DNA from: Candidatus Micrarchaeota archaeon
Lineage (GTDB): Archaea; Micrarchaeota; Micrarchaeia; Anstonellales; Bilamarchaeaceae
DNA: 64,000 bases
Direction of reading: 5' to 3'
NCBI GenBank assembly: GCA_964434735.1
Contig: CAYSWK010000002.1
Coordinates: 634-64,633 of the forward strand
Shown here piece by piece: positions 2,823 through 49,060 of this stretch; the stretch's first letter is position 1, and each line of letters begins with the position of its first letter. A program made the position numbers and the translations under genes. The notes under the pieces are model-generated. The model saw only the letters and a list, made by a program, of their open reading frames with translations. It did not search any database and was not told the DNA's origin.

Positions 2823-3863
2823 TTACCCAAACCACGTTTCCAATTTTCGTTGCGCACCCTTCTCTTTTACGTTCTTTTTGAGATTTGCAAGCACGTTTTC
2901 TATCCTATCATTGGAAAAGTCATGCTCATCGCACATTAACCGAATGACTGAAGAATCATCAGGCGACGTAAAGCGAAACGTCGGTTTCTCAACCGCTTCC
3001 TGGGACTTGAAAAAAAGAATCACTGTTTCAATGTAATCTTCAAACTCATACGCGTACTTTTCCTTTACAAATTTCTTAATGGAATCAAACGTCAAATGCT
3101 CCTTTGCAACTTTGAGCGCCGTCTTAGGGCCGACTCGTGGAACCCCTTCATTAAAATCAGTCCCTACCAAAATGCCGATATGAATAAGCTGCTCTTGGGT
3201 GATGTTTACCGAATCAAGGCATTCTGAAAGCTTAATCTCTTCCGGTTCTATAGTAATGTACGTATTTTGCCTTGGAACTTTCCTACGTCCGGTAATTGAA
3301 ATATTACGGATAAGAACAGGCGAACCGAACAAAAGGGAATCATAGTCCTGCGAAGCGGATGCATGGACTGCGCCGTTTTTGACAAGTGCTGCGGCATATG
3401 CCTCCCCTTCGGTTGGTGCCTGAATAAACGGGATGCCCATTGCAGTAAGCAACTGCTTGCTTTCCTCAATCATTTCCGAAGTCAAACGAGATGTGCCTTG
3501 TGCAAAAGAACGCGCATCCTCATAACGCTCCTCTTCAAGCGCTTTTTTCCATTTCTCTTCTGCTTCCTTCTTTGTTTTTGCACGCTCCTCAATCGTTCGA
3601 AGCTTAAAGGGCGGCGGCGGGCCGTCAAATACGTACACGGGCTTTATGCCGTTTTCAATCAAACGAGAAGAACGGTACAAAAGACCGGAAAGATGCGCCG
3701 TTATCCTTCCCTTATAATCCATAAGCGGAGTGCCATCTTCCTGCCTGATTGATGCAAGGAACTGGTACAATACGTTGAAAGCATCAATTGCAATGATCTT
3801 TCCTGAAAGGGATGCAAGTGTGGTGGGGTGCCTAACCGTAATGTCTCCAAGATCTACACCCAC
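2823..3863 (-). CDS. fen: flap endonuclease 1 (FEN-1)
   Basis: MGVDLGDI...IAIDAFNVLYQFL...GRITAHLSGL...VYVFDGPPPPFK and C-terminal PCNA-binding-like tail QRKLETWF; canonical archaeal FEN-1 N and I domains. Confidence 0.9.
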   Translation of the reverse strand: MGVDLGDITVRHPTTLASLSGKIIAIDAFNVLYQFLASIRQEDGTPLMDYKGRITAHLSGLLYRSSRLIENGIKPVYVFDGPPPPFKLRTIEERAKTKKEAEEKWKKALEEERYEDARSFAQGTSRLTSEMIEESKQLLTAMGIPFIQAPTEGEAYAAALVKNGAVHASASQDYDSLLFGSPVLIRNISITGRRKVPRQNTYITIEPEEIKLSECLDSVNITQEQLIHIGILVGTDFNEGVPRVGPKTALKVAKEHLTFDSIKKFVKEKYAYEFEDYIETVILFFKSQEAVEKPTFRFTSPDDSSVIRLMCDEHDFSNDRIENVLANLKKNVKEKGAQRKLETWFG

Positions 3864-29359: not shown

Positions 29360-31066
29360 TTATACCAGCTTCTTTGCGCTCTGGTTCTTGCGGGCGGCCT
29401 CGATAACCTCATCGGGGGAAAGATAGTACTTCTTTATGATTTCACCGACCTGGTTGATGTCCTCAATCTTATTTTTCACCATCCATTCAAGAATGCCCTT
29501 TTTCTCCTTCTGGTCATCATAAATTTCCTTCTCAGTCATACCTGTGTGAAGGTTTATGTTTTCAATATAACGATGAGGAGGTTTTACCATTTGGAACTCG
29601 TCCTGCCTTGCACGCCAGACAAACACACGATTTATTTCCGGGCCGTTTGCGCCAGGTATAACTTCAGAAATTTCAAGCGTCCTTCTTAAGTTTCTTCTTC
29701 GGTCACGGAACTGCACCATGACCAAGTGGATGTCTTCAACTTCAGCAGGAGGGATTTCTATTGGAGGCTCAGTGAGACGCTTAAGCATCTGGCTTCCCGT
29801 ATCGGCGTGCATGGTCGCGTAAACTGAATGCCCCGTGTGCATTGCCTCGAACAGGACCTCGGCTTCGCGTTTTCTTCGCACTTCGCCCATGATAATGCGG
29901 TCAGGGCGCATACGTAATGCATTAACTACCAAGTCAAGCATCGAAACCTCACCCAAACCTTCAGAATTTGCCGCACGAGTTGCCATAGGAACCCAGTTCC
30001 ATTGATAATCTGGAAGAAGCAGTTCACGCGTATCCTCAATGGTTACAATACGCTGCTGAGGAGGGATAAGCGCCAATACACCGTTAAGTGCCGACGTCTT
30101 GCCGCTTGCGGTGCCTCCCCCTACGAGGACGTTTGCTTCATAATGTATTGCCTGCCATAAAAGCGCCGCCATATCGGTTGACATGGTTTTTTGCAAACCG
30201 ATCATGTGAATAATCGTCCAGGGGTTTCGCGCAAAAAGACGCAACGTAATCGTATTGCCTGCGGTTGAAATGGGAAACAACGTTGCATTGACACGGTCAC
30301 CAGTTTGAAGGTGCGCATCTAAAATAGGATTAAGAGTATTGATCTGCTTTCCGACCCTTCGAGCGATCTGTGCGGAATAATTCTCGATTTCATCCTCGTT
30401 TTCCGCCTTGAGGCTTGTCTGCATCCACCCCAATTTACGGTGGTACACTGCAAGCGTGTTCTTGCTTGAATTGGCAACGATTTCTTCAAGCCAATTATCT
30501 GCAATAAGCAAGTCCAATTTTCCAAGCCCGTACATGTCACGGAAAAGCCATGACGCGCATGCGCTCAATGCGTCCCCTTGCGCAAGCGGTTTAAGTGCAT
30601 CAAGGATTGTTGCAAATTTTTCCTTTTTTGAATCCTGACCCTTTCGTGCACGTTCCTCGTTTAAAATAGCAATTTGCTTTTTGAGCGAATTAAGGTAAAG
30701 TCTCGTATAGTATGAGATGCTTGGCAACTCAACAAAATAACGCTTTGCGCCTTCTGCCTCATACAGGTGCGCCTTGGCAACAGGGACACCTTCGTCTTTT
30801 ACATCATACGTATCGATTGCCTTGGTCTTTGCGGGCAAGGCGGAATCGTCCTCAACAGGCGGCTTGATATTACGTATAAAGGGGCGCGAAAAAAAATTAA
30901 GCGGATACACAAGTTCAAGTGCGCCTTCTTTTTCAAGCACACGCGCAATTGATTCAACAAGTGAAAAAGGAGTCTTGGTTTGCTTTGCAATGGCGACAAG
31001 CGTGATGCGCTTTTGCCCTTTACAGGCGGTTATAACTTCATCAACCTTGGTTTTGTAGTCTGCCAT
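29360..31066 (-). CDS. type IV filament assembly ATPase (FlaI/TadA family), second copy
   Basis: Walker A VLVGGGTASGKTSALNGVLALIPP, Walker B RIIMGEVRR, His box VYATMHAD; long N-terminal extension. Confidence 0.8.
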   Translation of the reverse strand: MADYKTKVDEVITACKGQKRITLVAIAKQTKTPFSLVESIARVLEKEGALELVYPLNFFSRPFIRNIKPPVEDDSALPAKTKAIDTYDVKDEGVPVAKAHLYEAEGAKRYFVELPSISYYTRLYLNSLKKQIAILNEERARKGQDSKKEKFATILDALKPLAQGDALSACASWLFRDMYGLGKLDLLIADNWLEEIVANSSKNTLAVYHRKLGWMQTSLKAENEDEIENYSAQIARRVGKQINTLNPILDAHLQTGDRVNATLFPISTAGNTITLRLFARNPWTIIHMIGLQKTMSTDMAALLWQAIHYEANVLVGGGTASGKTSALNGVLALIPPQQRIVTIEDTRELLLPDYQWNWVPMATRAANSEGLGEVSMLDLVVNALRMRPDRIIMGEVRRKREAEVLFEAMHTGHSVYATMHADTGSQMLKRLTEPPIEIPPAEVEDIHLVMVQFRDRRRNLRRTLEISEVIPGANGPEINRVFVWRARQDEFQMVKPPHRYIENINLHTGMTEKEIYDDQKEKKGILEWMVKNKIEDINQVGEIIKKYYLSPDEVIEAARKNQSAKKLV

Positions 31067-31727
31067 CGAATGTGCTTGCTGTTGTGATGTTTATATTTGT
31101 TACGCATTCTTGAAAATTAAAAAAATACAAGTCTGATTGCACTAGGTGTACAATAGCCAGCAATTTCAAAAAGAAATTGCAAGTTCAAGTTAACTTTGTT
31201 AACAGTCCTTTCATTTTTTATAAGCAAAAATGCAAGAGTAATTGAACTTCGTTCAAAACCCTTCCATTTTTGTGAGCAAAAATGCAAGAGGCAGGATATT
31301 CACTGTTTCCCGCACCCTGCAGTCTGCATCCAGAAATTACTGGAAACAGGTAACTGGCTGCTGGAAACTGATTTGAACCTGCGTAGTCACTAAGACACCA
31401 AACATCTCCGGCAATTTGACAACGTCAAAAAGCCTCCTGAATCTGGCACGTTTGACCGGGCTCCGCCACTCTTGCGTTTACTTATGTTTTCCGAATACAA
31501 CGTAGCGGCCTATTCCAAGAAAGTACTTAGAGTTGGCCTTGCTCGCACTTTCGTGCGAGAGCTTTTGCAAGAGCTTGGGTTCCGAAGGAACCTGGCGGGC
31601 ATTGACGCGCACGTCAACCAAACCGCCACTCTTGCGTGGTATTATGTTCTTCTTATGCAACATCCGTTGATTGAACATGCTACTCTTGCCTCGTTACTCT
31701 TATAAATATGACAAGTGAGAGAAACGC
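31067..31727. repeat. repeat-dense divergent intergenic region (7-mer GCAAGAG/CTCTTGC x6, tandem 30-mers, duplicated 14-mer ccgccactcttgcg)
   Basis: gcaagag at 31232, 31284, 31567; ctcttgc at 31469, 31629, 31684; tandem repeat tc(c/a)ttttt.t.agcaaaaatgcaagag at 31205-31237 and 31259-31290; ccgccactcttgcg at 31463-31476 and 31623-31636. Confidence 0.6.
31436..31476 (-). pseudogene. tRNA-like 5' segment (acceptor + D-arm + anticodon stem/loop of a tRNA-Leu-like sequence, anticodon CAG) without a contiguous 3' half
   Basis: minus strand GCAAGAG TG GCG GAGCCCGGTCAAA CGT G CCAGA TTCAGGA mirrors the 5' half of the tRNA-Leu at 48714-48839; a T-arm-like GCAGGTTCAAATC lies 54 nt further downstream on the same (minus) strand (plus coords 31370-31382) and a CTCTTGCA acceptor-3'-like element at 31283-31290. 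Confidence 0.35.
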
Positions 31728-32468
31728 ATGGCATCCCGTGATACAACTCCCGCATATGTACCAAAAACCATCGAAAGAATCAAAAGCGGAATTCCCGGAT
31801 TTGACCAATTGATCCAGGGGGGATTTGTAAATCATTCAACAACGCTTGTACGCGGTGGAACGGGAACGGGGAAAACCCTTTTTTGCCTCCAGTATTTATA
31901 CAAGGGAATACGTGAACATAATGAACCGGGCGTATTCATCTCATTTGCAGAAACTGAGGAAGAAATCATACAGCACGGCAACAGCTTTGGCTGGGATCTT
32001 GAAGAATTAATAAAAAAGAAACAATTTGCGATCATACAATATGCGCCGCACGAAATCGCCCACGTCATGGAAGAGGGGGGCGGAAGCGTCCGTGACACCA
32101 TCGAGTCCCTTGGCGCAAAACGCCTTGTCATCGATTCCATAACTGCATACTCACTTTTATTTGAAAATGAATACAAGGCAGATGAATCAATATTGGACCT
32201 CTTCCAGCTGCTCAAAAAATGGGGATGTACTTCATTAGTAACTTCAGAATATCCTGTATATGTGGATCAAAGCACCCCGGAAAGGCTTGGGTTTCTTACC
32301 GATGGAATACTTAACCTCTATTATTTTAGGGTAAACAACAAAAGAATACGTGGGCTTGAAGTGCTCAAAATGCGGGATACGCACCAGGAGAATACCATCC
32401 GTTCGATGGAAGTAAGTAAGACGGGAATTATAATTGGCAAACCGCTTTCATTAAGAGGTCAAGCATGA
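31728..32468 (+). CDS. FlaH/ArlH-like KaiC/RecA-superfamily ATPase
   Basis: GIPGFDQLIQGGFVNHSTTLVRGGTGTGKTLFCLQYLYKG Walker A in KaiC-like fold, ~246 aa, as in archaellum FlaH. Confidence 0.6.
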   Translation: MASRDTTPAYVPKTIERIKSGIPGFDQLIQGGFVNHSTTLVRGGTGTGKTLFCLQYLYKGIREHNEPGVFISFAETEEEIIQHGNSFGWDLEELIKKKQFAIIQYAPHEIAHVMEEGGGSVRDTIESLGAKRLVIDSITAYSLLFENEYKADESILDLFQLLKKWGCTSLVTSEYPVYVDQSTPERLGFLTDGILNLYYFRVNNKRIRGLEVLKMRDTHQENTIRSMEVSKTGIIIGKPLSLRGQA

Positions 32469-48713: not shown

Positions 48714-48839
48714 TGCAAGGAGGCGGATTTGAACCGCCGAACACACTAAGTGACAGGATATCTTCGACTTTTTGATTAAACTTTTTTTCAAAAAGTTTAC
48801 TTAAGTCCTGCGCATTTAACCGGGCTTTGCTATCCTTGC
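48714..48839 (-). tRNA. tRNA-Leu(UAA) with ~41-nt intron between positions 37/38
   Basis: minus strand GCAAGGA TA GCA AAGCCCGGTTAAA TGC G CAGGA CTTAAG[intron TAAACTTTTTGAAAAAAAGTTTAATCAAAAAGTCGAAGAT]A TCCTG + 15-nt variable arm + GGCGG TTCAAAT CCGCC + TCCTTGC A; D-loop and long variable arm typical of class-II Leu tRNA. Confidence 0.65.
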
Positions 48840-49060
48840 GTTGTCTTGTGCTCTTCTTATGCAACGTAGGGAAACCTATTCTTCTCTTCTTCTTGAAGAG
48901 GGTTTCCTGCTCGTAGGCTTTCGCCTCCGAGTGCATTCTCCTATTGCCATATGCTTCGTATATGCAACGAGGGAAACCGGTTCTAAGAAAGTACTTAGAA
49001 CGGGCAAGTATAATGGAAATAAATCCCATTAACGTACGCAATGTATTGCGTACGTATGTG
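48840..49060. repeat. tRNA-upstream region sharing motifs with 31.5-kb region plus a 22-bp palindrome
   Basis: tcttcttatgcaac (48852-48865 vs 31648-31661), hairpin-forming aagaaagtacttaga (48985-48999 vs 31517-31531), caacg(t)agggaaacc x2; palindrome cgtacgcaat-gt-attgcgtacg 49033-49054. Confidence 0.45.

Follow-up and report, generated by a model that had tools for sequence, protein, structure and literature searches.

A predicted two-intron tRNA-Leu(CAG) gene and structured copies of its ends in a Micrarchaeota archaeon

In ARMAN-2, 56% of the genes for transfer RNA (tRNA) are disrupted; introns at position 59/60 are documented there, as in the pre-tRNA-Cys and, together with a 53/54 intron, in the pre-tRNA-Pro, and the epsilon2 splicing endonuclease of this organism cleaves non-canonical bulge-helix-bulge (BHB) motifs (PMC3239211). 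Here we describe a locus in a 64-kb stretch of DNA from a Candidatus Micrarchaeota archaeon (contig CAYSWK010000002.1; the whole stretch is called the window, and its coordinates are used throughout). Read on the minus strand, from 31475 to 31283, this locus appears to hold a tRNA-Leu(CAG) gene with two introns, gene B, accompanied by copies of its own ends, among them a folded unit that we call element A. Gene B resembles the ARMAN-2 pre-tRNAs in its phylum, in carrying BHB introns at canonical and non-canonical positions, in using the 59/60 site and in being invisible to standard finders; it differs from them in being a tRNA-Leu(CAG), in combining introns at 37/38 and 59/60, and in the length of its T-loop intron, 75 nucleotides (nt). 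Such introns are already known in Micrarchaeum, and the two-intron gene is a further case of a known phenomenon in the phylum. The part that may be new, and that deserves further attention, is the A-type tRNA-end mimic, of which the literature searched holds no description.

Plant mitochondrial t-elements and mascRNA-type tRNA mimics are tRNA-like processing signals. Element A is like them in its acceptor-like helix with an unpaired 3′ base, in being a possible target of RNase P and tRNase Z, and in its place in a precursor beside other RNAs; it differs in having no T-arm mimic, in being built from the neighbouring tRNA's own ends and in tracking that tRNA across genomes, and its processing is putative. 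Fragments of tRNA genes are also left by integrating elements, which generate attL/attR direct repeats at their attachment (att) sites in Thermococcales (PMC9897764), and a tRNA-Thr 5′ fragment occurs together with a pNOB8-type recombinase in Caldiarchaeum subterraneum (PMC3293823). The present locus shares with these systems the partial copies of tRNA ends beside an intact gene, an adjacent integrase in two relatives (L003 and L096; L-numbers denote comparison loci from other genomes) and its variability among close relatives. In the window, however, the copies are 8-15 nt long and no element separates them from the gene, just 52-160 nt away, and element A also has complementary strands and a recurrent fold, which plain att fragments lack. 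Finally, split and permuted archaeal tRNA genes are described in Nanoarchaeum, Caldivirga and Thermofilum (PMC4390854, PMC3978253). Dispersed tRNA pieces, a structured intervening sequence and an archaeal host with many disrupted tRNA genes are features in common with the window, whereas gene B is contiguous and colinear and needs neither separate halves nor a 3′-before-5′ order.

The tRNA-Leu(CAG) gene and its two introns

The original prediction drew attention to a 660-bp intergenic region in which the 7-mer GCAAGAG or its complement CTCTTGC recurs, and the count bears this out: six copies lie between 31232 and 31689, a span of ∼460 bp for which shuffled sequences (mean of 8.5 copies per 64 kb) predict ∼0.06. 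The other 63.5 kb of the window hold 12 more copies, in line with the shuffles, so that outside the cluster the 7-mer occurs at background frequency. GCAAGAG and CTCTTGC are the two acceptor-stem strands of tRNA-Leu(CAG), and every one of the six copies is an acceptor-stem strand, whether in the tRNA itself or in a copied tRNA end. The tRNA-like reading of the minus strand proposed in the same place was right, as were the positions given for a T-arm-like and a 3′-acceptor-like piece. Among the explanations offered, that of a multi-intron tRNA-Leu(CAG) proved correct, with BHB introns at 37/38 and 59/60; the order of the parts is given in Table 1.

At both junctions a 4-nt central helix is framed by 3-nt bulges, and both motifs are seen in the unconstrained minimum free energy (MFE) fold of the precursor. 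For intron 2 the central helix is UUCA/UGAA, the bulges are AA|U and UA|U, and the inner helix has seven pairs and one A.A mismatch; this junction may slide by one U with the spliced product unchanged. For intron 1 the central helix consists of three pairs plus an A.G mismatch, with the bulges GG|A and AU|G. The unconstrained MFE structure of the 192-nt precursor is a cloverleaf, in which the introns prolong the anticodon and T arms. The predicted spliced junctions read UUCAGG|GUUUGG and UUCAAA|UCCUGC (in longer form GGUUCAAA|UCCUGC).

ARAGORN called the 86 nt that remain after in-silico removal of both introns as tRNA-Leu(cag). When intron 2 alone was removed, the intron mode of the program (-i) found the 32-nt intron 1 at exactly the predicted junction. 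The 86 spliced columns align without gaps to the uninterrupted tRNA-Leu(CAG) of L003 and L005, with ∼91% identity to L003 (hand count), and the spliced anticodon loop, UUCAGGG, is that of the uninterrupted orthologues, the unusual G38 included. Leucine identity features, namely the long variable arm UGUCUUAGUGACUAC and the discriminator A73, are present in the pattern of the tRNA-Leu at 48.7 kb. That second gene, which the original prediction had cited as genuine, does exist; it is a tRNA-Leu(UAA) with an intron of its own (Table 1).

Standard finders miss the tRNA-Leu(CAG) gene because the two introns interrupt it. Over the whole window, default ARAGORN called no tRNA and Rfam at gathering thresholds gave nothing; at E<=0.05 Rfam found the tRNA at 48.7 kb only, not tRNA-Leu(CAG), and at E<=10 the region 30900-31900 gave only chance matches to microRNA and small nucleolar RNA families. 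The tRNA-Leu(UAA) is itself missed by default ARAGORN and by Rfam with its gathering filters, and this, together with its intron, marks the host as an archaeon with intron-bearing tRNA genes.

Taken together, these results make it highly probable that the region is a two-intron tRNA-Leu(CAG) locus, in which the other 7-mers are DNA duplicates of the gene ends and element A lies in the pre-tRNA leader. A point to be set against this is the A.G mismatch in the central helix of intron 1, which makes that BHB slightly relaxed. From the predicted folds, we infer that both introns would be spliced in vivo.

Element A and the other copies of the tRNA ends

Element A is the "70-nt hairpin-rich segment", closed by CTCTTGC-A, that the original prediction had noticed after a second copy of GCAAGAGTGGCGG. 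It is composed of tRNA nt 1-13 (GCAAGAGUGGCGG), an arm closed by GGCGG/CCGCC, a single A, the hairpin GGUUCC-UUC-GGAACC, CAAG, and the 3′ acceptor strand with its A (CUCUUGCA). The whole folds into a three-way junction (MFE -36.2 kcal/mol, z = -5.1), inside which all 13 copied nt are paired, eight of them in the acceptor-like helix and five in GGCGG/CCGCC. In the window, as in L004, the acceptor mimic has 7 bp plus U8.G, followed by an unpaired A at the discriminator position. Hairpin P3 lies at the position of the T-arm; CAA intervenes, and its 3-4-nt loop is devoid of the T-loop motif. No relevant Rfam 15 family was found for element A in 30900-31900, even at E<=10, and neither BLAST nor a covariance model gave other copies of it in the window. 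Two candidates were discarded: CGTTGYATA motifs, located at 9.9 and 55.3 kb and considered as A-related, belong to ordinary coding sequence, and the possibility that element A plus the spacer form a BHB intron at 13/14 was rejected by hand analysis of the folds, the only conserved bulge of A having no partner bulge 4 bp away.

The repeats that had been reported around the gene were partly redefined. A 14-mer said to occur twice, 160 bp apart, is indeed repeated with that spacing, but its true length is 15 nt (CCGCCACTCTTGCGT, 31463-31477 and 31623-31637). Likewise, two ∼30-mers described as tandem do have an exact 16-mer in common (31223-31238 and 31275-31290), yet they do not abut; they are part of a 52-nt direct repeat with a period of 52 and 41/52 identity.

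On its 5′ side, element A is preceded by a flank that matches 48835-48865, upstream of the paralogous tRNA-Leu, over 31 nt with 27/31 (87%) identical positions. Gene B's own 5′ flank is a more diverged copy, and the paralogue's 5′ flank is closer to that of A. Since the flank of A matches the paralogue better than the flank of B does, A would sit in the gene's original 5′ context, and on this comparison we take 31636-31661 to be the original 5′ flank or leader of the tRNA-Leu(CAG) gene. A comparison of L004 with L094 points the same way, since there too the conserved upstream spacer runs directly into the A-like copy, not into the tRNA. A degenerate 12-nt sequence lying 43 nt farther upstream of element A is possibly, at low confidence, a third tRNA 5′ fragment. 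The spacer between A and B also includes ACGTTGTATTCGGAAAACATAAGTAAAC, another version of the 5′ flank that has diverged; throughout 31476-31565 the spacer contains no T5 run and, by eye, no separate TATA-like box for gene B. Its palindrome (15/15 nt) and a GAAA hairpin recur upstream of the tRNA-Leu at 48.7 kb.

As a separate observation, the stretch 48840-49010(-), upstream of tRNA-Leu(UAA), repeats the CGTTGCATA flank box in a second, distal copy and also contains a GAAA-tetraloop hairpin, a further hairpin and the palindrome TCTAAGTACTTTCTTAGA, which has 15/15 nt in common with 31517-31531. Both tRNA-Leu genes thus have long, hairpin-rich 5′ regions with common modules in differing order.

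On the 3′ side, the first unit after the gene is likely to be an oligo-T terminator and resembles the 3′ flank pattern after the tRNA-Leu at 48.7 kb and after the tRNAs of L004 and L094. Element C follows in tandem, and its hairpin differs from that of the first unit by changes on both arms. Between B and C lie 44 nt whose homology to the flank of C itself points to a tandem duplication and not to foreign DNA. In L004 and L094, a relic 3′ fragment, GACTCCTGCA, with a T-run lies downstream of the tRNA and is mismatched to the local acceptor.

The region is identical in two public contigs of the same population, and homologues of the KaiC-like protein carry the name Candidatus Micrarchaeota in their sources. 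The AT-rich box at 31700-31706 precedes the KaiC-like start codon (ATG, 31728) by ∼26 nt and, on the minus strand, precedes 31677 by ∼26 nt. From this spacing we infer a candidate bidirectional archaeal TATA box, in which case the KaiC-like messenger RNA would be leaderless. A scan for bacterial-type promoters and terminators was uninformative, the host being an archaeon.

Table 1. Features of the tRNA-Leu(CAG) region and of the second tRNA-Leu gene in the window
Feature	Position	Strand	Description
7-mer GCAAGAG/CTCTTGC	31232, 31284, 31567	+	
7-mer GCAAGAG/CTCTTGC	31469, 31629, 31683	-	
tRNA-Leu(CAG) gene (gene B)	31283-31475	-	G1 = 31475, discriminator A73 = 31283; 193 nt with introns, 86 nt mature before CCA addition
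Exon 1, tRNA positions 1-37	31436-31475	-	acceptor 5′ strand GCAAGAG, U8 G9 (UG), D-arm GCG-GAGCCCGGUCAAA-CGU, G, anticodon stem 5′ strand CCAGA, loop UUCAGG
Intron 1, 32 nt, canonical 37/38	31404-31435	-	inner helix GGC/GCC + UUGAC/GUCAA
Exon 2, up to position 59	31372-31403	-	G38, anticodon stem 3′ strand (G-UUUGG), long variable arm, T-stem 5′ strand GCAGG, T-loop UUCAAA
Intron 2, 75 nt, T-loop 59/60	31297-31371	-	BHB geometry strict 3-4-3
Exon 3	31283-31296	-	U60, T-stem 3′ strand CCUGC, acceptor 3′ strand CUCUUGC, A73
Element A, tRNA-end mimic, 70 nt	31566-31635	-	copies of tRNA ends around two hairpins
5′ flank of element A	31636-31661	-	GTTGCATAAGAAGAACATAATACCAC; homologous to 5′ flank of 48.7-kb tRNA-Leu(UAA)
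Possible third 5′ fragment, degenerate, 12 nt	31678-31689	-	GCAAGAGTAGCA: own acceptor strand + TAGCA, as nt 8-12 of 48.7-kb tRNA-Leu
A-B spacer	31476-31565	-	GAAA-tetraloop hairpin (31559-31542); palindrome TCTAAG-TACTTT-CTTGGA within GGCC/GGCC (31538-31507)
First 3′ unit	31239-31291	-	last 8 nt of tRNA (CTCTTGCA), T5 run + complementary A5 (CATTTTTG-CTCA-CAAAAATG), hairpin TTGAAC-GAA-GTTCAA
Element C, tandem second 3′ unit, 52 nt	31187-31238	-	CTCTTGCA-TTTTTGCTTATAAAAAATGAAAGG + hairpin GTTAAC-AAA-GTTAAC; 41/52 identical to first
AT-rich box TTATAAA/TTTATAA	31700-31706	either	read from sequence
73-aa open reading frame, public gene call	31484-31705 (L001 2757-2978)	+	antisense to element A and spacer
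Flanking genes		-	archaeal type IV filament ATPase (T2SSE/FlaI-like) and two T2SSF genes
Flanking genes		+	KaiC/ArlH-like ATPase and class III signal-peptide protein
tRNA-Leu(UAA)	48714-48839	-	45 bits against Rfam tRNA with laxer filters; 40-nt anticodon-loop intron at 37/38

The locus and element A in related genomes

When one genome of each species was scanned for the D-arm/anticodon pattern of the tRNA, four Micrarchaeota loci emerged. In L003 and L004, an A-like element lies 14-17 nt upstream of tRNA-Leu(CAG). Its plan is that of the window: tRNA nt 1-13 come first, then an arm closed by GGCGG/CCGCC that bears a small bulge on its 5′ side; A or AA and a hairpin follow, and CAAG leads on to the 3′ acceptor strand. 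The three-way junction is the MFE structure in all three loci, with z = -6.6 in L003 and -7.2 in L004 beside the value for the window, and the hairpin sequences vary among genomes while their arms still pair. A covariance model trained on the window, L003 and L004 scored 79 bits on the window and 44.5 bits (E 5e-11) on L111, an untrained genome. In 249 kb of sequence its only extra match was a degenerate copy in L096; the L111 locus was found later.

The copied strands follow the tRNA next to which they stand. The 5′ copy equals nt 1-13 of the local tRNA in four loci (window, L003, L004 and L111) and nt 1-7 in L096. Both acceptor strands track the local tRNA, being GCAAGAG/CTCTTGC in the window, GCAGGGG/CCCCTGC in L004 and GCAAGGG/CCCTTGG in L003, where the terminal pair of the acceptor mimic is a G.G mismatch. 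The L111 unit has a 5′ copy, GCAAGGG, that tracks the tRNA, but its 3′ strand has decayed. Since the 3′ copy of A is only 8 nt long and stands in unrelated surroundings, gene conversion is unlikely, and we take the tracking of the local acceptor by this strand as probable selection for pairing.

Searches in other collections gave no further member. A metagenome scan with a D-arm 21-mer returned mostly tRNA-Leu(UAA) of other archaea plus two or three non-archaeal sequences, and no A-like element. Scans of viral contigs with two specific patterns gave no match. A gapped A-like pattern gave 72 viral-contig matches, of which three pair at least six of the seven acceptor positions; by eye the interiors of these three did not look A-like, and all 72 were taken as chance.

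The tRNA-Leu(CAG) gene itself varies in its introns. In L004, L094 and L096 it carries 59/60 T-loop introns of 39-46 nt that are unrelated in sequence, and in L093, where the tRNA lies upstream of an SPFH gene, it has a 37-nt D-loop intron instead; in these four loci tRNA-Leu(cag) was called only with the proposed intron removed. L013 (10006-10135(+)) has an extra insert in the variable region, and its full sequence was not called as a tRNA. The gene is intronless in L003, L005, L006 and L111, so that intron position appears to turn over quickly within the lineage. Judged by eye, the tRNA-Gln(CUG) upstream has an apparent insert after the anticodon in L003 and L093 and in the T-loop in L004 and L094, and none in L006, L096 and L111.

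The gene order SPFH, tRNA-Gln, tRNA-Leu(CAG) is conserved in the clade, and among SPFH homologues under ∼75% identity the tRNA synteny is gone. In relatives the tRNA locus adjoins unrelated genes (SPFH/stomatin) and not filament genes, and relatives of the KaiC-like gene at 58-62% identity have other neighbours and neither tRNA-Leu nor the elements.

Directly downstream of tRNA-Leu(CAG), on the same strand, L003 (3189-4400(-)) and L096 (617-1825(-)) encode a tyrosine integrase of 402-403 amino acids (Phage_integrase plus zinc ribbon), which suggests that an integrated element uses the tRNA 3′ end as its att site in these genomes. Neither the window nor L004 gave a homologue when searched by tblastn with the two proteins. 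By eye, the ∼90 nt after the tRNA 3′ end in L006 (2596-2700(+)) and L091 resemble the start of the L003 element (TAATCAGCCGGACTCAAATC against TATCCTCCCAGACTCAGGTC), and they are followed by a second CCCCTTGCA with a T-run; this stretch has the look of a scar that an integrated element, since lost, has left behind. In L096, short dispersed repeats of the GTTTCCGG, CGAAACGG and GGAACTGG types, with matches of 11-18 nt, occur at 1936-2237, 2335-2400 and 3350-3513. They recur in the T-loop intron of the tRNA-Leu, in tRNA spacers and in another intergenic region, a pattern suggestive of one family of small insertions that form hairpins and have tRNA introns among their sites.

Possible role and origin of element A

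In the mechanism that we propose, minus-strand transcription would start near 31677 from the box at 31700-31706, pass through element A and the spacer into the tRNA, and stop at the T5 run that follows 31283. Both introns would be cut out by the archaeal tRNA-splicing endonuclease and the exons sealed by an RNA ligase into the 86-nt tRNA with its long variable arm and A73, and RNase P would cleave at G1 (31475), upon which the leader with A would be discarded. Because no TATA-like box is seen by eye in the spacer and no T5 lies between A and B, A is probably co-transcribed as part of the pre-tRNA leader. Paired internally, its 13 duplicated nt would be prevented from competing for the genuine tRNA's 3′ acceptor strand, and a self-sequestering duplicated 5′ end in the leader is the putative role that we favour for A. 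The four A-like units without a T5 before the tRNA keep at least six of the seven acceptor pairs; the L111 unit, which a T5 follows, has lost its 3′ strand. More generally, element A and its counterparts in L003, L004 and L111, with the degenerate one in L096, may constitute an undescribed Micrarchaeota class of tRNA-end mimics that co-evolve with the adjacent tRNA-Leu(CAG) under RNA-level selection, either as leader neutralisers or as processed tRNA-like RNAs. We advance this proposal tentatively and with less than even confidence.

Several observations weigh against our account of element A. The sequestration argument covers five loci only and is a lead, not a test. Element A is absent from L006 and L091, which are near L003, from L094, which is near L004, and from L093, L005 and L013. 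The A-like unit also stands on differing sides of the conserved tRNA-Gln/tRNA-Leu spacer, between spacer and tRNA in L004 and upstream of the spacer in L111. Moreover, the interior of the L111 unit (TTGG, a UGCG loop, GCC-CGCC, GGTTC...GAACC) is closer to that of the window than to that of its nearer relative L003; this likeness and the patchiness are no less compatible with a mobile or recurrent insertion than with an RNA under selection. A T5 run ∼20 nt upstream of the A-like element of L004 leaves the promoter ambiguous there, and the antisense strand of A folds nearly as well as the sense strand. Finally, the copied stretch reaches 2 nt, and loosely ∼13 nt, 5′ of the mature tRNA end, which shows that the duplication in A arose at the DNA level.

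The main rival explanation takes A and C as recombination scars, left when elements whose att sites are the tRNA-Leu(CAG) ends repeatedly integrated and were excised. A would then be a remnant or miniature of such an element, with inverted repeats that serve as recombinase sites in the DNA or form single-stranded DNA hairpins and have no RNA role, and we regard this explanation as possible, if somewhat doubtful. The att remnants already put forward in the original prediction are a reasonable source for the extra end-copies, given the integrase beside the same tRNA in L003 and L096, a pNOB8-type arrangement (PMC3293823), and the scar in L006/L091; archaea commonly carry partial tRNA genes that stem from integration events (PMC9897764), the A-like units are patchy, differ in position relative to the conserved spacer and do not follow genome relatedness, and the duplication takes in non-transcribed or leader bases. 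Against this, A is more than a fragment, being a structured element that recurs in other genomes; no homologue of that integrase is found in the 64-kb window, no A-like copy is separated from its tRNA by an integrase, the known integrase is 3′ of the tRNA whereas A is 5′, and the direct repeats of 15 and 8-16 nt in the window enclose only 147 and 44 nt, the latter being tandem duplication as described above. The G.U pairs in A favour the tRNA-sense strand, two viral-contig scans gave no A-like or matching att sequence, and the 8-nt 3′ strand, too short for gene conversion, tracks the local tRNA all the same, which would need selection for pairing. That same tracking in the window, L004 and L003 could instead indicate an independent functional tRNA-like small RNA, released by RNase P and tRNase Z and maybe CCA-tailed, for instance a decoy or regulator of a tRNA-Leu-specific enzyme. 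The perfect 7-bp acceptor-like stem with its unpaired A, the stable hairpins, the gene-like place within the L003 tRNA cluster, where 5 nt separate it from the preceding tRNA-Gln and 17 nt from the following tRNA-Leu, and the recognition of the family by the covariance model in an untrained genome all agree with such a molecule. We nevertheless judge it improbable, as A has no T-loop-like or anticodon-like loop and no Rfam match, close relatives are without it, just four or five members are known, and decay affects the 3′ strand in L111, the 5′ copy in L096 and the terminal pair in L003.

The true gene might also be larger, starting at nt 1-13 of A, ending at the CTCTTGCA of C, or both, with extra introns between, or it might be split or permuted, as the original prediction had likewise allowed. 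Either copy would yield an identical mature sequence, and of the 5′ flanks that of A is the better conserved, and of the 3′ flanks that of C is the most similar to the paralogue's. This is very unlikely, however: hand analysis of the folds found no BHB-like motif linking the two copies, a T5 run comes right after the A73 of gene B, the A-like copy of L111 is ∼190 nt away from its tRNA with T-runs between, and the conserved 5′ spacer would there fall inside the "intron"; a split or permuted gene is unsupported, because B is complete, with all exons colinear and contiguous within 193 nt. Least probable of all, to a degree that makes it nearly negligible, is that the 7-mers are operators for the divergent filament operons between which they lie, or that the region encodes the 73-aa plus-strand open reading frame predicted by a gene caller in a public contig. 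The operator or non-coding RNA array once suggested for these operons lost its basis when all six 7-mers were accounted for by the tRNA and its end-copies, and in relatives the elements go with the tRNA beside unrelated genes. The open reading frame has no family match, no similarity to the antisense frame in L003 and no counterpart in relatives; it was rejected as a gene and is probably a false call from an unrecognised RNA locus.

Both tRNA-Leu genes of the window are thus hidden by their introns, to the extent that default ARAGORN and Rfam at curated thresholds find none in 64 kb. It follows that annotations of DPANN genomes under-count tRNAs and call spurious open reading frames across them, as with the 73-aa frame here. 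As compared across these genomes, the tRNA-Leu(CAG) locus of Micrarchaeota appears to change fast, showing no intron, a D-loop, variable-region or T-loop intron, integrases, scars or an A-type mimic, and it offers a compact natural series for the origin of tRNA introns and gene fragments. If element A is indeed under RNA-level selection, it would represent a new kind of tRNA-derived structured leader.

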